The position numbers and the translations under genes are program-made. Shown piece by piece: positions 7,649 to 63,210 of a DNA stretch of 64,000 nt (within the stretch, counting starts at the first letter, position 1; every line of letters begins with the position of its first letter). The stretch is taken from contig NZ_JBEILJ010000007.1 in NCBI RefSeq assembly GCF_040379285.1, forward strand, positions 1,134 to 65,133, read 5' to 3'. This stretch comes from Flavobacterium sp. (GTDB lineage Bacteria > Bacteroidota > Bacteroidia > Flavobacteriales > Flavobacteriaceae). The notes below the pieces were generated by a model, which worked only from the letters and a program-made list of their open reading frames with translations, did no database searches and was not told the DNA's origin.

Positions 7649-7803
7649 AGCCGTATTTTTTTAGCCTTCCAAAAATAAGGACTTTCCCTCGGACGTCCAA
7701 CAATGCCCTTTCCTTTGCGCTCAAAATCTTATCAACAATTGCCCTTTTTGGAACCCATTTTCTAAAATTAAATTTATCTTTGAACGCTCAAAAAAATACC
7801 CGT

Positions 7804-8346
7804 ATGATGATCTATAAATTCCGAGCTATCTTGGACGCTGAAGACGATATTTTTCGCGATATCGCTATCGAAGACAATGCAACTCTTGAGGATTTACACA
7901 ATGCTTTGGTTAACGCTTTTGGTTTTGATGGGACTGAAGTTGCCTCTTTTTACACCTGCGACGATACGTGGAACCAAGAGGACGAGATTCCGATGTTTGA
8001 AACCGGCGACACTCCTGGCGAAATGCGAACGATGGCTGACTTCCAGTTGCAAGACCTCCTTAACGAGGATCAGACCAAAATCATTTATGTATATGATTTT
8101 ATCAGCATGTGGACGTTTTTGGTCGAATTGGCGGCGATAGAAGAACCTGTACCTGGTGCTACCTACCCTGAATTGCTATTTTCACACGGAGAGATGCCAG
8201 CAGAAGCCTTGGAAAAACAATTCGAAGCCGATGGGGACTATGAATCGTATAATGATTTTGAAGACGAATTGGATGAGGAGGACATGGACATGTTTGGCGG
8301 CGATGATCATTTTGAGGATTATGGGTTTGAGGAAAATTGGAATTAG
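7804..8346 (+). CDS. Plasmid pRiA4b ORF-3 / IS1096 passenger TnpR-like protein with acidic tail
   Basis: FRDIAIEDNATLEDLHNALVNAFGFDG and IIYVYDFISMWTFLVEL pattern. Confidence 0.75.
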   Translation: MMIYKFRAILDAEDDIFRDIAIEDNATLEDLHNALVNAFGFDGTEVASFYTCDDTWNQEDEIPMFETGDTPGEMRTMADFQLQDLLNEDQTKIIYVYDFISMWTFLVELAAIEEPVPGATYPELLFSHGEMPAEALEKQFEADGDYESYNDFEDELDEEDMDMFGGDDHFEDYGFEENWN

Positions 8347-8350
8347 GCTA

Positions 8351-8382
8351 CTGAGCTGCTGAGTTTCTGAGTAACTGAGCTG
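8351..8382 (+). repeat. Tandem array of 4 x 8-mer CTGAGnnn (left arm of four-helix module 1)
   Basis: CTGAGCTG CTGAGTTT CTGAGTAA CTGAGCTG. Confidence 0.85.
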
Positions 8383-8471
8383 TTTTCCCGCCAATATAGC
8401 TTAACCGATCACAAATGGTTACATTCGGAAAGTTCACCTTAAGTTGTCATATCTTGGCAAAAATATGAGCC

Positions 8472-8825
8472 ATGAACACGTATCGAAATTTAATTGTTTG
8501 GCAAAAAGCCATGAATTTAGTGACAACAACTTATGAGATTACCCTAGAATTTCCCAAAACGGAGCAGTATTGCTTAACCGATCAAATGCGAAGGTCGGCA
8601 CTATCAATTCCGTGTAACATTGCTGAAGGTAAGGCTCGAAATAGTAATAAAGATTTTATTCGTTTTTTACGAATTGCCCTAGGTTCGCTTTTCGAATTTC
8701 AAACCCAACTCGAAATTGCAAAAAATATTGAATATATCAATCAAGAACAGTTCCAACGACTTTGGAATTTCAGTACAGAAATTGAAGTAATATTGGTATC
8801 GTTCATCAAAAAAATAAATGTGTAA
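8472..8825 (+). CDS. Four helix bundle protein (23S rRNA IVP / Avd-like family)
   Basis: YRNLIVWQKAM, FPKTEQYCLTDQMRRSALSIPCNIAEG and GSLFEFQTQLEIA. Confidence 0.93.
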   Translation: MNTYRNLIVWQKAMNLVTTTYEITLEFPKTEQYCLTDQMRRSALSIPCNIAEGKARNSNKDFIRFLRIALGSLFEFQTQLEIAKNIEYINQEQFQRLWNFSTEIEVILVSFIKKINV

Positions 8826-8842
8826 TTAATGCTGTGTTCACC

Positions 8843-8874
8843 AGACTCAGAAGCCTAGTGGCTCAGCATCTCAG
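8843..8874 (-). repeat. Tandem array of 4 x 8-mer nnnCTCAG (right arm, inverted relative to 8351-8382)
   Basis: AGACTCAG AAGCCTAG TGGCTCAG CATCTCAG. Confidence 0.75.
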
Positions 8875-8886
8875 AAGCTAATAACT

Positions 8887-9945
8887 ATGCTCAATCTATT
8901 TAACACCCATATCGACTCCTTATCAATTCACCGTGTGGGCAACAAAAGTCGAAATGAAAACCTATTCTTATCGGAGACTACCTATAGTTTGACCGATGAA
9001 ATTGTGCCCTTGCTCAAAGAGTTCTTTTTTCGCCCTTTTCGGGAAAAAGAGGAGAACTACTTCCAGTTTGCGCATGATGTCGATTTGGAATACAACGAAA
9101 TGTTCAATTTAGCCACCGAAGTGTTTACCAACCCCAGCAGTGTGCATGAGGTATCCAAAAAAATCACTCGGCACCTTTTTGAACAATCGAATCATCCGCA
9201 CATCAAGAATGGGGAAGTGTATATAACTTATTTAACCAACATTTCCATCGACAATCAAACCGTGGATGCCCTAGGGGTGTTTAAAAGCGAATTACGGACT
9301 GATTTTTTGCAATTTGAAGAACGCGGTAGTAATTTGGAAATGATCCTTCAGGAAGGGATTAATCTCAATAAATTGGACAAAGGCTGTCTAATTTTTAACT
9401 ATAAAAAAGAAGAGGGTTACAAAATCCTCACTTTAGATAGCAACCGCTATGATGCGCGGTACTGGCTGGAACACTTTTTATCGGTCGATGCCTTTCAAGA
9501 TGAAAATTACATGACAAAAAAATATTTGAAGTTTTGTCAAGAGTTCGCCAAAGAAGTGGTTTTCCCTGCCGAGGATAAAAAAGAAGAGGTACTGTTCATG
9601 AATCGTGCTGTCAATCACTTTGCCAAAAACGATACGTTTGAAGAGACCAAGTTTCTCAATGAGGTCATTGAAAACCCCGAATTGATTCCCGAATTCAAGA
9701 GTTTCAAAGCCGATCGTGGAGAAAAGTATAGCATTGAAGACGTGACTTCCTTTCCGATTGCCAATGCAGCGGTTTCTGATGCAAGACGTTCGATAAAAAA
9801 TGTGATCAATTTGGACACCAATATCCAAATCAAATTGGATTTTGTAAACCCCGACAGTGCCGAAAAGTTTGTTGAAAAAGGCTGGGATGAAGAACGCCAA
9901 ATGTATTACTACCTGGTGTATTTCAACAAAGAACAAAAAAGTTAA
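8887..9945 (+). CDS. Nucleoid-associated protein (NA37/YejK family)
   Basis: IDSLSIHRVGNK, HLFEQSNHPHIKNGEVYI, GINLNKLDKGCLIFN and YWLEHFL. Confidence 0.88.
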   Translation: MLNLFNTHIDSLSIHRVGNKSRNENLFLSETTYSLTDEIVPLLKEFFFRPFREKEENYFQFAHDVDLEYNEMFNLATEVFTNPSSVHEVSKKITRHLFEQSNHPHIKNGEVYITYLTNISIDNQTVDALGVFKSELRTDFLQFEERGSNLEMILQEGINLNKLDKGCLIFNYKKEEGYKILTLDSNRYDARYWLEHFLSVDAFQDENYMTKKYLKFCQEFAKEVVFPAEDKKEEVLFMNRAVNHFAKNDTFEETKFLNEVIENPELIPEFKSFKADRGEKYSIEDVTSFPIANAAVSDARRSIKNVINLDTNIQIKLDFVNPDSAEKFVEKGWDEERQMYYYLVYFNKEQKS

Positions 9946-10019: not shown

Positions 10020-10045
10020 TAGCCCCCCAGCCCCCAGAGGGGGAG
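10020..10045 (+). repeat. C-tract/C-tract/G-tract repeat TAGCCCCCCAGCCCCCAGAGGGGGAG (second copy at 62207-62232)
   Basis: Near-identical copy TAGCCCCCTAACCCCAAAAGGGGGAA after tpiA. Confidence 0.7.
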
Positions 10046-10095
10046 AATTACTATTTCAAATCAAATAATGACTTAAACTAGTGACTAGTAATTGG

Positions 10096-10130
10096 TGACT
10101 GATGACTTACGACTTACGACTGATGACTGC
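10096..10130 (+). repeat. Orphan tandem array of 5 x 7-mer (T/C)GACTnn
   Basis: TGACTGA TGACTTA CGACTTA CGACTGA TGACTGC, just before promoter TACCTTTG (10142-10149). Confidence 0.8.
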
Positions 10131-18293: not shown

Positions 18294-18773
18294 TTATTCG
18301 GCTTCTGGATCGGCACTACCCGTTACCTTTTGCCCGATTTCACTATCACCCGCATACAAGGTCGTTTCCCCTTTTTTAAAGATAAACCCCTTCCAAGCTA
18401 CCAATTGGTAGTCGTTTTTTACCCATGGACTGCCCTCGCTGGCACGCGTAAGTAACATAGATTCTTGGTTGGGTAAAAAGACCTCCGCTTGCTTGCGGTC
18501 TTCGCTAAACAAGACATAGGCCGCTAGGGTTTCATCTTCAGTATTGGCTTGATCTAAGGGATTTAATTGCAATCCTGTAAACATCCGGACACATTCTTTG
18601 TTTAGTTTCGACCAAGTATAACCCGCTGAAGCTAAACAACCGTTTTCGTCTTTATCTGAACCCGTGATGGTAGAATCCTTGACTTGCCCTTGTGCTGCGG
18701 TTGCCTCCTCCGATTGGGGTTTGCAAGCGCCGACAAGCAACAAAAGTATAAGTGAAAAAAAAGATGTTTTCAT
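18294..18773 (-). CDS. Hypothetical lipoprotein
   Basis: Lipobox LVGAC; GSDKDENGCLASAGYTWS motif. Confidence 0.75.
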   Translation of the reverse strand: MKTSFFSLILLLLVGACKPQSEEATAAQGQVKDSTITGSDKDENGCLASAGYTWSKLNKECVRMFTGLQLNPLDQANTEDETLAAYVLFSEDRKQAEVFLPNQESMLLTRASEGSPWVKNDYQLVAWKGFIFKKGETTLYAGDSEIGQKVTGSADPEAE

Positions 18774-40649: not shown

Positions 40650-42488
40650 ATGAATAAATTTGAACAATTAGGCCTGAACGCCGCGCTTCTTCAAGCGATT
40701 GGCGATATGGGATTTGAAACTCCATCGGAGGTTCAAGAAAAAGCGATTCCTGTGCTTTTGGAACAGGAGACTGACCTTGTGGCTTTGGCCCAAACCGGAA
40801 CCGGAAAAACAGCAGCCTTTGGCTTTCCGTTACTTCAAAAAATAGATGTCGAGGACCGCAGTACGCAAGCCTTGATTTTATCGCCCACCCGCGAACTTTG
40901 TCTCCAAATTACGAACGAACTTAAACAGTACTCTAAATACATTAAAGGACTTCATGTCGTGGCCGTTTATGGGGGCGCTAGCATTACCGAACAAGCCCGT
41001 GAAGTAAAACGTGGGGCTCAGGTTATTGTAGCGACACCCGGACGTATGCAAGACATGATTAACCGTGGATTTGTCAACATTAAAAACATCGCTTACTGCA
41101 TCTTGGATGAAGCCGATGAAATGTTGAATATGGGATTCTACGACGATATCTGTGCTATCCTTTCCGATACGCCCGATGACAAGTCTACTTGGTTGTTTTC
41201 GGCTACCATGCCTGCCGAAGTGGCGCGCATCGCGAAAAAGTTTATGGCCGACCCCGTTGAAATTACAGTCGGTGCTAAAAACTCAGGTACAGCAACGGTT
41301 TCCCATGAATTTTATGTGGTCAATGCCCGCGATCGATACGAAGCATTAAAACGGTTGGCCGATGCCAATCCCGATATTTTCTCGGTTATTTTTTGTCGTA
41401 CCAAACGCGATACACAAGCCGTTGCTGAAAAACTTATCGAAGACGGTTACAATGCCGCAGCTTTACATGGCGACTTGTCACAAGCGCAACGCGACTCGGT
41501 GATGAAATCCTTCCGTGGACGACAAATCCAAATGTTGGTTGCTACCGATGTGGCGGCTCGTGGAATTGATGTTGACAACGTTACCCACGTCATCAATTAC
41601 CAATTACCCGATGAAATTGAAACCTACAACCACCGTTCGGGTCGTACTGGACGTGCAGGAAAATTGGGAACTTCAATTGTAATTATTACCAAATCAGAAG
41701 TACGAAAAATCCACACCATCGAAAAAATCATCAAACAAAAGTTTGAAGAAAAAACGATTCCTAGTGGTATCGAAATCTGCGAAATTCAATTATTGCATTT
41801 AGCCAATAAAATTCATGATACCGAAATCGACCATGAAATCGACAATTACCTGCCTGCGATATACCAGGTTTTTGAAAACCTAAGCAAAGAGGATTTGATT
41901 CGTAAAATGGTATCGGTAGAATTTAACCGTTTCTTGAATTACTATAAAAAGAAAAAAGACCTATCGAGCGAACGCAGCAGTGAACGTTCCTCAGGCGGTT
42001 CAATCAAAGCAGGCGATGCGGTTCGTTATTTTATCAATATCGGAACACGCGATGATTTTGATTGGATGAAATTGAAAGATTTCTTGCGCGAAGCCTTAGA
42101 TTTAGGACGTGACGATGTTTTCAAAGTTGATGTAAAAGAAGGGTTCTCTTTCTTCAATACCGACGGAGAACATGCTGAACGTGTCATGGATATTTTTAGC
42201 AACTTCCAATTGGAAGGCCGAAAAATTAACGTTGAAATTTCTAAAAATGACAACGGTGGACGTAAAAGTGGCCGTGGTGATTTTGGAGGTAAACGCGAAC
42301 GTCGTGATCGTTTTGCCGACCATTCAGAACGCCGCAGTGAACGCCGTAGCGAAGGACGTTTTGAACCCCGTGGTGAACGCCGTAGTGGTGGTGAAGCAAG
42401 GCCTTTGGGAAGACGTAGTGATGCTAGTCGCGATCGACAGCCCGCCAACAAAGCTTTTGAAGCAGCCAAACGCCGCCGTAAAAGTTAG
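40650..42488 (+). CDS. DEAD-box RNA helicase, DeaD/CsdA-like with DbpA-type RNA-binding domain
   Basis: AQTGTGKT, DEAD, SAT and HRSGRTGR; C-terminal RYFINIG...; Arg/Gly/Ser-rich tail. Confidence 0.95.
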   Translation: MNKFEQLGLNAALLQAIGDMGFETPSEVQEKAIPVLLEQETDLVALAQTGTGKTAAFGFPLLQKIDVEDRSTQALILSPTRELCLQITNELKQYSKYIKGLHVVAVYGGASITEQAREVKRGAQVIVATPGRMQDMINRGFVNIKNIAYCILDEADEMLNMGFYDDICAILSDTPDDKSTWLFSATMPAEVARIAKKFMADPVEITVGAKNSGTATVSHEFYVVNARDRYEALKRLADANPDIFSVIFCRTKRDTQAVAEKLIEDGYNAAALHGDLSQAQRDSVMKSFRGRQIQMLVATDVAARGIDVDNVTHVINYQLPDEIETYNHRSGRTGRAGKLGTSIVIITKSEVRKIHTIEKIIKQKFEEKTIPSGIEICEIQLLHLANKIHDTEIDHEIDNYLPAIYQVFENLSKEDLIRKMVSVEFNRFLNYYKKKKDLSSERSSERSSGGSIKAGDAVRYFINIGTRDDFDWMKLKDFLREALDLGRDDVFKVDVKEGFSFFNTDGEHAERVMDIFSNFQLEGRKINVEISKNDNGGRKSGRGDFGGKRERRDRFADHSERRSERRSEGRFEPRGERRSGGEARPLGRRSDASRDRQPANKAFEAAKRRRKS

Positions 42489-48403: not shown

Positions 48404-48961
48404 ATGAAAAAATTTCAAAACAAGTACCGAATACCCTCTTCCCGATTACAAGGTTATGATTATGGGGCCAACGGAATCTATTTTATTACCATTTGTACAA
48501 AAAACAGAAAACATTTTTTTGGCCATATCACAGAGACGCACGATAGTGCGTCTCCATCACCCACAGAGACGCACAATGGTGCGTCTCTGTGTGCAACGGA
48601 AATTGGTAAAATCGCACAGAAATATTGGGCCGAAATCGCTGACCATTACCCCTTTGTTACGGTTGATGCGTTTGTGGTTATGCCCGATCACCTCCATGGA
48701 ATTTTGATATTCAACAATCCCGATAAAAAGGAATGGACACCCAATCAATTTGGTCCACAATCTAAAAATCTTGCAGCTGTAATCCGAGGATTTAAATCTT
48801 CAACAAAGCGATATGCAAATCAAAATGGTATCGAATTTGAATGGCAACCTCGATTTCATGAAAGTATCTTACGAGATGAAAAGGCACTGCTAGCCGTGAG
48901 GCGCTACATCATCAACAACCCTAAAAAATGGCTAGAGACATCCCGTAAAGACGCGCAATAG
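48404..48961 (+). mobile_element. REP-associated tyrosine (Y1/HUH) transposase, IS200-like RAYT
   Basis: YFITICT, VVMPDHLHGIL (HUH), WQPRFHESILR and YIINNPKKW (catalytic Tyr); associated REP hairpins. Confidence 0.9.
48530..48591. repeat. Two REP-like hairpins inside the transposase ORF
   Basis: ACAGAGACGCACGATAGTGCGTCTC and CACAGAGACGCAC-AATG-GTGCGTCTCTGTG (13-bp perfect stem). Confidence 0.85.
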
Positions 48962-49045
48962 CGCGTCTTGCGTGTCTTGCGTGTCTTGCGTGTCTCATGA
49001 CGCGCATATCACACACATAGAGACGCGCAATAGCGCGTCTCTGTA
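48945..49045. repeat. Two REP-like hairpins plus 4 x 9-mer GCG(C/T)GTCT(T/C) tandem at the transposase/guaB junction
   Basis: GTAAAGACGCGC-AATA-GCGCGTCTT (48945-48969) and ATAGAGACGCGC-AATA-GCGCGTCTCTGTA (49017-49045). Confidence 0.88.
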
Positions 49046-50518: not shown

Positions 50519-50598
50519 ATTGCAATTTAATTGTTGTTAAATTGCATGCAAATGTAGGGCTTTTAATTGAGGAAAAAATTGATTTTGTGAAATAGTTT

Positions 50599-50622
50599 GC
50601 AGTCGCAGTCACAGTCGCAGTT
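50599..50622 (+). repeat. Tandem array of 4 x 6-mer (G/A)CAGT(C/T) (left arm of four-helix module 2)
   Basis: GCAGTC GCAGTC ACAGTC GCAGTT. Confidence 0.85.
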
Positions 50623-50720
50623 AGCTTGAATTGAATTCATTTTAGCTAATCAAGAAAATGCAATCAATTAATTCATAAAAATTAATACTTTTTTTTTCAT
50701 TAACGCCAAATAGAATTAAA

Positions 50721-51092
50721 ATGGATTTTACAGAATTATTTGCTTACAAAAAAGCATACCAACTTGCCATGAAACTGTTTTTAGTTTCAAAAAAATTCCC
50801 CAAAGAAGAATCCTATGCACTTACCGATCAAATACGAAGATCTTCAAGAAGTGTGTGCGCTAATCTTGCAGAAGCATATCGAAAACGAAAGTATCCGCTT
50901 CATTTTATCAGTAAATTGACAGATTGTGACGCCGAAAATTCTGAGACATTTGTATGGATCACTTTTGCTTTTGAATGCGAATACATTTCTGAAAACCAAT
51001 ATGTAAGTTATAAAAATGAAACTCTTGAAATTGGTAAATTAATTCAGTACATGATGCAGCATCCAGAAAAATTTGGAAGTAAATTAAATTGA
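50721..51092 (+). CDS. Four helix bundle protein (23S rRNA IVP / Avd-like family)
   Basis: FTELFAYKKAY, FPKEESYALTDQIRRSSRSVCANLAEAYRKR and DAENSET. Confidence 0.93.
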   Translation: MDFTELFAYKKAYQLAMKLFLVSKKFPKEESYALTDQIRRSSRSVCANLAEAYRKRKYPLHFISKLTDCDAENSETFVWITFAFECEYISENQYVSYKNETLEIGKLIQYMMQHPEKFGSKLN

Positions 51093-51119
51093 TAAAATAA
51101 ATACGTGTTTCTATACTGC

Positions 51120-51269
51120 GACAGAGACTGCGACTGCGACTGAGACTGCGACTGAGACTGCGACTGAGACTGCGACTGTGACTGCGACTGTGACTGCGAC
51201 TGTGACTGAGACTGTGACTGAGACTGCGACTGTGACTGAGACTGAGACTGTGACTGCGACTGTGACTGT
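51120..51269 (-). repeat. Tandem array of 25 x 6-mer GACTG(C/A/T) (right arm, inverted relative to 50599-50622)
   Basis: 150-bp perfectly phased hexamer run; only the sixth base varies, apart from the first unit GACAGA. Confidence 0.97.
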
Positions 51270-61460: not shown

Positions 61461-62209
61461 TGAGAAGAAAAATTGTTGCCGGCAACTGGAAAATGCATAA
61501 AAATGCTGAAGAAACAGAAGATTTCCTAAACGAATTAATTGCCGCGCTTCCCGACGATATTGAGGCCGAAGTGATTGTTGCGCCTCCCTTTGTGAATTTA
61601 GCTTCGGCGGCCGATCATGTTGAATTTACTCCGATTACGGTAGCCGCACAAAATATGCATCAAGCAGAAAGCGGTGCCTATACCGGCGAAATTTCGGCTG
61701 CCATGTTAAAAAGCATTGGGGTAAATACGGTGATTTTAGGTCATTCGGAGCGTCGTGCGTACTTCAACGAAACGGATGCCGCCTTGGCGAATAAAGTAGA
61801 TACGGCTTTGAAACACGATATGACCGTTATTTTTTGTTTTGGAGAAGAATTGAAAGACCGTCAAAACGGACAACATTTTAACGTCGTTGAAAATCAGTTA
61901 CGCGATGGGCTGTTCCATATTGACGATAAGAACTGGGCGCAAATTGTCTTGGCTTACGAACCCGTTTGGGCGATTGGCACAGGAGAAACGGCGACCCCAG
62001 ATCAAGCTCAAGAAATGCATGAATTCATTCGCAACACTCTACGATCACGCTACCCTCAGGTGGCGGAAGATGTTTCGATTTTGTATGGCGGTAGTGTAAA
62101 ACCCGACAATGCGCGTGAAATATTCTCCAAACCCGATGTCGATGGTGGTTTGATTGGTGGCGCGGCTTTGAAAGTGGCCGATTTTGTGGCGATTGCGGAA
62201 GCGATTTAG
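61460..62209 (+). CDS. tpiA: Triose-phosphate isomerase
   Basis: AGNWKM, GHSERR, AYEPVWAIGTG, YGGSV and LIGGA. Confidence 0.98.
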   Translation: MRRKIVAGNWKMHKNAEETEDFLNELIAALPDDIEAEVIVAPPFVNLASAADHVEFTPITVAAQNMHQAESGAYTGEISAAMLKSIGVNTVILGHSERRAYFNETDAALANKVDTALKHDMTVIFCFGEELKDRQNGQHFNVVENQLRDGLFHIDDKNWAQIVLAYEPVWAIGTGETATPDQAQEMHEFIRNTLRSRYPQVAEDVSILYGGSVKPDNAREIFSKPDVDGGLIGGAALKVADFVAIAEAI

Positions 62210-62239
62210 CCCCCTAACCCCAAAAGGGGGAAAGAGATG

Positions 62240-62287
62240 CTGAGACGCTAAGACGCTGAGCTGCTGAGCCGCTGAGCTCCTGAGCAA
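62240..62287 (+). repeat. Orphan array of 6 x 8-mer CT(G/A)AGnnn
   Basis: CTGAGACG CTAAGACG CTGAGCTG CTGAGCCG CTGAGCTC CTGAGCAA. Confidence 0.88.
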
Positions 62288-62338
62288 TCGTCAACGACAA
62301 ATCTCCCCTAGACTCCTACATTAAGCACCACGCAACGG

Positions 62339-62455
62339 CTATGCGAACTATGTTACTATGTGGTTTAAAAAAACATAACGCATCTTTCAAGTTTACTACA
62401 CAGTAAAATAAGGTAGTAATTAAATTTAACCACATAGGGACATAGGTGTATATAG
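62339..62455. repeat. Inverted pair of CTATG/CATAG mini-arrays
   Basis: CTATGTTACTATGTGGTT (62348-62365) versus AACCACATAGGGACATAG (62428-62445), 16/18 complementary. Confidence 0.8.
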
Positions 62456-62458
62456 GTG

Positions 62459-62498
62459 TTGAGCCGCTGAGCTCCTGAGACGCTGAGCTCCTGAGCAA
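62459..62498 (+). repeat. Orphan array of 5 x 8-mer (C/T)TGAGnnn
   Basis: TTGAGCCG CTGAGCTC CTGAGACG CTGAGCTC CTGAGCAA; shares CTGAGCTCCTGAGCAATCGT with the 62240 array. Confidence 0.88.
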
Positions 62499-62768
62499 TC
62501 GTTGCGTGAAGATAGGGATGAGATTTCTCCTAACGTCGAAAGGACATCAGGACGTTGTATTTTTTTAGCTAGCTAAAAACTTTACCCATAAGTTGTGCTT
62601 CCAAAGAAGGAGAAATCCCATAAGGTTGGGGGCGGATTTGCTAAAAAAGTATAGCTTGTTTCTTGAAACTTTAGACTCCAAACGGGGGGATTCCTTTTTT
62701 ATCCTTTTCGCTGGTTTTCGCTGGTTTTCGACTATGATATTGGGTTTTCGATTTCATGGCTTTTTCAT

Positions 62769-62823
62769 GGACTATCTAGGGAGTATCTATGGAGTATGTA
62801 TGGAGTATCTAGGGCGTATCCCT
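62769..62823 (+). repeat. Five tandem 11-mers, consensus GGAGTATCTA(G/T)
   Basis: GGACTATCTAG GGAGTATCTAT GGAGTATGTAT GGAGTATCTAG GGCGTATCCCT. Confidence 0.8.
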
Positions 62824-63210
62824 ACCCCACCCCATAATTTGGGACAAAACTAGCGTTTGCGTTCAGTATTTGGTATACATGAAAGCTACCGCAACACTGT
62901 TTTTTTTTTTTACGCTTTTGATGACCGAAGCAACCCCTTACGTTGCCTTTTTTGGAAAGCGCTGTACCTCCCCAAAAAGAACTCCTTTTTTACGCCCCTT
63001 AACGGAAAACCGTACCCTCCCCACTTTTCTTTGCTGTAATTTTATGGCTTGGTGGAAAAAAACCGACTAGCCGCCGGAAAAATACCTGTTTTTGCGGGGA
63101 AAAATCCTGCGGAAAATTGGGAGAGAATGTTTAATTTGCGGGGGGATAATTTGATTAGGTGTGTAAAGCTGTCAGGCGTCAGCTTTGAAAAAAAACTATA
63201 AAAAATAATT

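Follow-up and report, generated by a model that had tools for sequence, protein, structure and literature searches.

What is a small four-helix-bundle gene doing between two protein-coding genes, with inverted arrays of a short tandem repeat on either side of it? The question is raised by positions 8351 to 8874, here called module 1, of a 64,000-nucleotide stretch of DNA (the window, meaning the whole stretch that was analysed). The genome comprises 2.6 Mb in 101 contigs and its close relatives are Flavobacterium. The gene belongs to PF05635, a very large family that to our knowledge has been without a known function since its discovery inside 23S rRNA intervening sequences (IVSs) in the 1990s. 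An earlier note on this DNA proposed that module 1 is a minimal self-contained mobile or regulatory unit, whose arms either pair in the transcript to loop out the gene or serve as phased binding sites for its protein. Module 1 is an IVS-type four-helix-bundle gene cassette. Its description as a cassette is secure, and the role of the arms is weighed below.

Module 1 is slotted between two genes that are co-oriented with it on the forward strand, as had been proposed: a gene of the PRiA4_ORF3 family (7780-8346) and a gene for an NA37 nucleoid-associated protein (8887-9945). The 5' arm (8351-8382, forward strand) starts 4 nt after the TAG stop of the upstream gene (8344-8346) and consists of four 8-nt units of the form CTGAG+NNN (CTGAGCTG CTGAGTTT CTGAGTAA CTGAGCTG), exactly where and as many as the earlier note had it. 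A leader of 89 nt (8383-8471) separates this arm from the gene, which encodes 117 amino acids (8472-8825, forward strand). The 3' arm (8843-8874, forward strand; AGACTCAG AAGCCTAG TGGCTCAG CATCTCAG) is an inverted copy of the 5' arm with four NNN+CTCAG units, and ends 12 nt before the ATG of the NA37 gene at 8887. The position and number of units given earlier for this arm are correct, except that the second unit is degenerate and has CCTAG instead of CTCAG. Predicted pairing extends slightly beyond the arms, from 8346 to 8879. Only 4 of 15 spacer positions pair, in keeping with the view that the arms represent a periodic motif in two inverted arrays, and not a classical terminal inverted repeat. 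With an 8-nt period, four units per arm and an intergenic position, the arms have the features of the short tandemly repeated repetitive (STRR-like) arrays. The pattern CTGAGN3 x4 (at most two mismatches) has a chance expectation of 0.00 in the window (100 shuffles), and is found there in the two arms and in two gene-less arrays within 62240-62495, nowhere else.

The four-helix-bundle gene is the sole ORF of at least 50 amino acids that lies wholly within module 1, so there is no transposase, as had been claimed. Rfam gave only chance-level matches at module 1, PADLOC gave none for it, and there was no rRNA match in 8200-9000. A 23S rRNA IVS proper was rejected, as module 1 is not in a 23S rRNA gene. 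The leader carries two near-consensus -7-like motifs that face both ways, again as described before: TATCTTGG at 8450-8457 and, on the reverse strand, TATATTGG at 8391-8398. Both have the form TAnnTTGG, with one mismatch to the Bacteroidetes TAnnTTTG, and both are putative. The leader also contains, at 8392-8411, a 20-nt and 90% identical copy of a segment of the ORF (8565-8584, the QYCLTDQ codons), and the surroundings of this copy translate to a degenerate FP...L/PT.. stretch. This suggests that an older or partly duplicated gene of the four-helix-bundle type has left a remnant between these arms.

The predicted protein matches PF05635 (23S_rRNA_IVP) with an E-value of 4.4e-40 and 136.6 bits (cut-off 33.8) over residues 5-109 of 117, and TIGR02436 with an E-value of 1.2e-39 and 134.9 bits (cut-off 24). 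Its nearest solved relatives are 2GSC (E 6e-22) and 2RLD; each PDB entry has five chains, which is no proof of a pentamer in solution. The number of units per arm is 4-5. The gene had been called 23S-IVP/Avd-like, and the first part of this label is well founded. The matches to the accessory protein (Avd) of diversity-generating retroelements (DGRs) are below cut-off (NF033474, 29.3 vs 80; PF22296, bAvd, 28.6 vs 40), and the protein was rejected as a DGR accessory protein. No PF00078 match, that is no reverse transcriptase, was found anywhere in the 99%-complete genome, nor was a DGR template/variable repeat pair. As there is no reverse transcriptase in the genome, module 1 is not a DGR. The dN/dS ratio is 0.07-0.13 in 11 ortholog pairs, and a ratio of about 0.1 indicates that the protein is functional and under purifying selection. 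About one sixth of the copies in the genus have internal stops.

The history of the site was followed in the genus. The PRiA4-NA37 synteny is present in all 24 genomes examined, and in 10 of these the two genes enclose the cassette, which the other 14 lack, the two closest relatives among them. The 10 filled sites include one 342-nt remnant (L018) and two frameshifted copies, and these show decay. Octamer arms are found at 10 of 10 filled sites and at 0 of 14 empty sites, as expected of the self-contained unit that had been proposed; the empty sites hold an unrelated spacer of 62-214 nt. In the NA37 tree, filled/empty sister pairs occur (L022/L019, L031/L032, L015/L016 and L018/L021), so several losses or gains are needed. 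Within the close trio L023, L026 and L028 the NA37 genes have a pS of 0.28-0.37 (L023 vs L026: pS 0.35, pN 0.001). The L026 cassette differs from those of L023 and L028 with a pS of 0.63-0.67 and a pN of 0.22 (IVP gene, L023 vs L026: pS 0.63, pN 0.22), a distance typical of distant species, and resembles L033/L031 instead. Here an allele has been replaced. Judged from these sites, the gene and arms of module 1 are one unit that is inherited, lost and exchanged together.

No target-site duplication could be recognised at the filled versus empty junctions. The empty-site junctions are not alignable because the spacer is unrelated, often with a conserved CCAAGAT...ATCTTGG hairpin. At least seven of the empty sites among L016-L036 carry this hairpin, CCAAGAT(A)AAAGACTTC...ATCTTGG, which is absent from the filled sites. 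The spacer thus exists in two alternative states, rather than as an insert versus a clean empty site.

Module 1 is one of 14 PF05635 genes in the genome, about 13 of which (judged by eye) are bracketed by inverted short-period arrays. The array unit differs from paralog to paralog (GTTGTCG, GGTTTCA, GCAGTC, GTAAGTC, GAATTAT and others), so whatever confers specificity has to be encoded within the module. The paralogs have at most 41% protein identity and different arms, and thus give no sign of recent transposition in the genome. A second cassette, at 50598-51269 on the forward strand, has the same design, with a 123-aa PF05635 gene (50721-51092) between arms that consist of (RCAGTC)x4 (50598-50621) and of some 25 inverted hexamers (51115-51269). 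It is the genome's only PF05635 copy that is antisense to both neighbours.

When about 2165 ORFs of the genome were ranked by an ungapped inverted-flank score, PF05635 genes took ranks 1-3. By a shared inverted 6-mer score they took ranks 1, 3, 6, 8, 9 and 23, with module 1 ranking 53rd (top 2.5%). These ungapped and k-mer inverted-match scores superseded a test with RNAduplex on 160 x 120-nt flanks, in which PF05635 genes were not separable from random genome positions because long spurious duplexes and the GC content of coding flanks dominate. Relatives from Bacteroidota, Planctomycetota, Elusimicrobiota, Acidobacteriota, Chloroflexota, Proteobacteria, Bacillota, CPR and others behave alike: against a mismatched-flank null, 61 of the 78 that were testable lie above the 95th percentile and 26 above the 99th, with periods of 7-8 nt. 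The earlier note had named two signs that would speak against its idea, fixation of the gene at this site in all relatives and a lack of enrichment for inverted arrays around four-helix genes. The gene is not fixed, with 10 of 24 sites filled, and the enrichment is seen both in the genome and among the relatives, so neither sign is borne out.

Among the database loci, 18 of 80 are at the PRiA4/NA37 site, Aquimarina included. The protein clade with CWRAG-octamer arms also occurs in seven other genomic contexts, including Planctomycetota, Elusimicrobiota and Proteobacteria. The closest protein relatives are mostly at orthologous sites, and a few pairs share protein and unit type and not context (for example L064/L066, at 87%). 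The match between clade and unit could be plain co-descent of gene and arms. The claim that module 1 is mobile has only indirect support, from its patchy distribution, the swap of one allele and the recurrence of its clade and unit in other phyla, and the low identity of the paralogs speaks against it. Both neighbours are co-oriented with the PF05635 gene at 42 of 42 decidable loci and for 13 of the 14 genes in this genome, so the cassette should be part of an operon transcript.

Several other loci have features of their own. Downstream of the cassette on contig C33 (L001; G000:C33, approximately 18480-18720), a block of about 100 nt stands in tandem and contains the 3' arm (ACCGACA units) and the apparent 3' end of a four-helix-bundle gene, an arrangement that suggests unequal recombination between arrays. 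Some cassettes, namely L020 (in its leader) and L155 and L160 (the sufC-sufD cassettes of G014 and G009), have an additional inverted partner array that follows the 5' arm and precedes the start codon. Two alternative structures are thus possible: a short local hairpin of the 5' arm ahead of the gene, or its pairing with the 3' arm farther away. Two loci from metagenome-assembled genomes labelled Sphingobacterium thalpophilum (L078) and Variovorax paradoxus (L084) are on contigs with the Flavobacterium PRiA4-cassette-NA37 order, for which mis-binning is more likely than transfer.

The arms were compared as a stem and as a set of repeated units. In the sense RNA, both the predicted minimum free energy structure and the centroid have the arms (8346-8382 with 8843-8879) closing around the ORF, with a z-score of -3.4, and thus a terminal inverted-repeat stem that encloses the ORF in the manner of an IVS. 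The antisense strand is predicted to form the outer stem only. The inner half of the stem pairs through the cores only. A gene for RNase III is present in the genome. Among mismatches in the arms, G·U is not in excess of A·C in 61 modules (168 vs 171), in the genus set (41 vs 34) or in nine orthologs (15 vs 25), which argues against strong selection for an RNA stem and is silent on reading of a single strand. In a set of nine orthologous cassettes, 83% of the positions in the 5-nt core pair with the partner arm of the same cassette and 79% with the arms of other species; for the 3-nt spacers the shares are 53% and 40%. The core changes in concert on both arms across species (CTGAG/CTCAG, CTAAG/CTTAG, CAAAG/CTTTG). 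The cognate register scores 22.9/28 and period-shifted registers score 16.6/28, a difference that arises partly by construction and is given no weight here. The arms also have a polarity, the G-rich arm being the 5' arm in 61/62 and in 29/34 modules. Among the places listed for G012, a count by eye gave 13 gene-less inverted pairs within 300 nt, all in the same order.

The repeat is not confined to the flanks of genes. The genome has 453 short-period arrays (TRF score of at least 30), which are strongly intergenic, and about 19 of these adjoin IVP genes. Gene-less arrays are intergenic in 145 of 190 cases in a genome that is 86% coding, and have no strand preference relative to transcription (27 vs 41). 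Units identical to those of an arm were found in 59 of 234 gene-less arrays of at least three copies, against a null of 7.6 +/- 7.5 and a maximum of 37 in 1000 shuffles. Pairing the TRF arrays by unit gave nine inverted pairs under a criterion that was too strict. The CTRAG-octamer family accounts for about 24 arrays in the genome, all of them intergenic; one is gene-bearing (module 1), about 23 are gene-less, and most are solitary.

Within the genus, gene and arrays occur together. Nine genomes with the cassette have 12, 47, 51, 73, 125, 365, 405, 447 and 482 matches to CWRAGN3 x3, and the 14 genomes without it have 0-22 (median 1; Mann-Whitney p 6e-5), with reversed-pattern controls near zero. 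Contrasts between sisters with and without the cassette are 125 vs 9, 47 vs 9 and 12 vs 7. The association is phylogenetically clustered, in that five of the six top counts come from one clade in which all sites are filled. Two genomes with the cassette, G015 and G019, have 482 and 51 matches despite a frameshifted copy at the PRiA4/NA37 site. A second family, RGTTTMA with the sufC-sufD IVP, agrees more weakly (p 0.015), and has exceptions in G014, which has the gene but 0 arrays, and in G001, G012 and G013, which have about 20 without a close ortholog. Taken together, the lack of a wobble excess, the conservation of core and not spacer, and gene-less arrays that track the gene lean towards phased recognition sites over a pure RNA stem.

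Other arrays in the window deserve description. Two gene-less direct CTGAG octamer arrays of the module 1 unit family (62240-62284 and 62459-62495, forward strand) follow tpiA, in a repeat-packed non-coding region of about 0.7 kb (62207-62900) with no ORF of the four-helix family. They share a duplicated end of about 45 nt (..gagctcctgagcaatcgt), and the same region has (TTTTCGCTGG)x2.6 and (GGAGTATCTAG)x4.7. Further tandem arrays are (GAACGCCGTAGT)x5 at 42327-42387 and (GCGTGTCTT)x3.9 at 48961-48995. A direct array of about five TGACTNA heptamers at 10096-10129 ends about 38 nt before the ATG (10167) of a DEAD-box helicase gene, and lacks a partner in inverted orientation. Similar direct repeats, of TAACTGA, have been described upstream of start codons (PMC4679880). 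The related unit GACTTAC makes up the arms of the cassette on contig C5. C5...G5 hairpins (ccccc(a/t)(g/a)cccc..aga/aaa..ggggg) stand beside tandem arrays at 10025-10047 and 62210-62228, and a similar motif flanks the empty PRiA4/NA37 site L032; they may be a separate small repeat family. Of contigs C57, C59, C71, C41 and C88 of G000, several begin or end in arrays (GGTTGTC x14.7, AACCTGA, CTGAGCCC). As arrays break the assembly, their number is underestimated.

The reading that we favour, tentatively and at a little below an even chance, is that an Avd-like oligomeric protein would read the core that recurs periodically in its own repeat, either as RNA or as single-stranded DNA, both at the flanks of its cassette and at the dispersed gene-less arrays. 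In addition, pairing of the two arms in the operon transcript could loop out the cassette in the manner of a 23S rRNA IVS. This reading is favoured by the core-versus-spacer pattern, the module-specific units, the polarity, the 4-5 units per arm and the co-occurrence of gene and arrays. Binding of the protein to the repeat, processing by RNase III and any role for the protein in the spread of arrays are inferred. More generally, PF05635 proteins might be sequence-specific readers of tandem repeats, with one subunit per 7-8-nt unit. Each paralog would be partnered with its own repeat family, much as RAYT is with REPIN, on the basis of a non-enzymatic Avd-like oligomer, and the protein would set where cognate arrays persist or spread. 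This extension to the whole family is possible and, in our estimate, doubtful.

Pairing of the arms might be all that there is. Module 1 would then be a selfish insert, tolerated in operons because its arms, which need only be complementary, pair in the polycistronic RNA; RNase III would cut the stem and release the cassette RNA, and the protein would have an unrelated function, or none that is tied to the repeat. The gene family and the dimensions match the Coxiella 23S IVS (PMC4990558), the arms close in the sense fold with only an outer stem in antisense, the orientation in operons is strictly sense, the genome has an RNase III gene, and the arms lie close against the stop and start codons on either side. 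However, the 339 transition mismatches are without wobble excess, and the core is kept across species and phyla as the spacers drift. The inner stem of module 1 would consist of 5-bp helices split by 3x3 loops, most CTRAG-octamer arrays are solitary and cannot form a stem at all, and G-first polarity and the co-occurrence of gene and arrays are left unexplained. We consider an RNA element of this kind unlikely. Another rival is a foldback mobile element acting at the level of DNA, in which the arms are terminal recognition arrays and gene-less arrays or hairpins are non-autonomous derivatives, spread or maintained in trans by the four-helix-bundle protein in a REPIN-RAYT-like manner. Each unit family has one gene-bearing copy and dozens to hundreds of gene-less arrays, many in convergent pairs; complementarity is strand-symmetric with no wobble bias; the sites are patchy, with one swapped allele; and the same clade and unit recur in distant phyla. 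Yet the protein lacks any nuclease, transposase or recombinase domain, a reverse transcriptase is missing from the genome, and neither a target-site duplication nor a clean empty-site junction can be defined. Paralogs at most 41% identical mean no recent transposition, the closest relatives are mostly at orthologous sites, and slippage alone can also grow tandem arrays. We rate such an element as distinctly unlikely.

Gene and arrays might also have no functional tie at all, the arrays being a generic product of slippage that four-helix-bundle genes merely adjoin. Only about 19 of the 453 arrays in the genome adjoin IVP genes, and the gene-less ones are without strand preference, as that would suggest. 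But the flanks of IVP genes are specifically inverted pairs, at the top of about 2165 genes; empty orthologous sites have no arms; in 61/62 modules it is the 5' arm that is rich in G; arms and gene-less arrays have identical units far more often than under the null; and the design recurs in many phyla. An incidental association is accordingly disfavoured and very improbable. The reading of the repeat by the protein, with pairing of the arms as an additional IVS-like feature, is the one that we carry forward.

Should the protein indeed read the repeat, the operons of many phyla would harbour a protein-repeat system of a new kind. The view of PF05635 proteins as readers, if true, would account for the orphan 'IVS protein' family as well as for the arrays of STRR-type heptamers and octamers in many phyla. 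It is accessible to study: (CTGAGNNN)4 is a candidate ligand for the 117-aa protein, one culturable genus offers filled, empty, swapped and decayed alleles, and the abundance of cognate arrays provides a genome-wide read-out.

The closest known element to module 1 is the ORF-bearing 23S rRNA IVS. The IVSs of Coxiella burnetii (S23p) and Leptospira share with module 1 PF05635, a length of about 0.45-0.5 kb and an ORF in the loop of a terminal-inverted-repeat stem of about 30 nt. They are co-transcribed with the host RNA, as module 1 would be with its operon. IVSs lie in helix 25 or 45, whereas module 1 lies between the protein genes PRiA4_ORF3 and NA37. The Coxiella IVS is 428-444 nt long and has a 28-bp stem that RNase III cuts in the middle (PMC4990558); this stem is near-perfect, in contrast to the periodic arrays of module 1 with their 5-nt core and 3-nt spacer. 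The module 1 protein is under purifying selection, whereas the Coxiella S23p is reportedly probably not made (PMC4990558).

A MITE or foldback transposon was rejected, as there is no target-site duplication and the 14 gene copies are at most 41% identical with different arms. In the REP/REPIN-RAYT systems a single-copy gene lies between inverted copies of a repeat that is also dispersed without the gene, each gene clade has its own repeat, and inheritance is largely vertical. Module 1 is alike in all of these: a single-copy gene, inverted flanking copies of a dispersed repeat, a repeat of its clade's own and largely vertical inheritance. The HUH/Y1 (IS200/IS605-like) transposase of RAYTs has no counterpart, as module 1 gave PF05635 and bAvd matches only. 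Its protein is a small four-helix bundle without HUH/Y1 motifs, its repeats are tandem 7-8-nt arrays and not single imperfect palindromes, and mobilisation is only putative.

Avd itself forms a basic pentamer and binds both nucleic acid and the reverse transcriptase of its system. The Avd of DGRs belongs to a fold family homologous to the module 1 protein; unlike Avd systems, the genome has neither a reverse transcriptase nor a template/variable repeat pair. TRAP is a ring-shaped homo-oligomer that binds spaced (G/U)AG repeats in the trp leader. It serves as a mechanistic analogy only, with a core at fixed spacing, free spacers, one unit per subunit and competition with RNA secondary structure. 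Its fold is unrelated to the four-helix bundle, for which we infer binding.

STRR heptamers are short-period intergenic tandem repeats of cyanobacteria. TAACTGA repeats have been described from Beggiatoaceae, Cyanobacteria and Bacteroidetes (PMC4679880), and GGGAATC repeats with convergent pairs from Xanthomonas (PMC4692102). These arrays resemble the arms of module 1 in having tandem 7-8-nt units in 2-15 copies, a strongly intergenic position, sometimes convergent inverted pairs and a patchy distribution across phyla. The texts of PMC4679880 and PMC4692102 make no mention of PF05635, and in the literature searched, with incomplete coverage, there was no paper linking PF05635 genes to tandem arrays. 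Unlike in the STRR, TAACTGA and GGGAATC reports, the repeat family of module 1 has a gene-bearing copy, and its abundance follows the gene. This locus and its relatives thus tie PF05635 to the 7-8-nt tandem arrays, an equally old puzzle.
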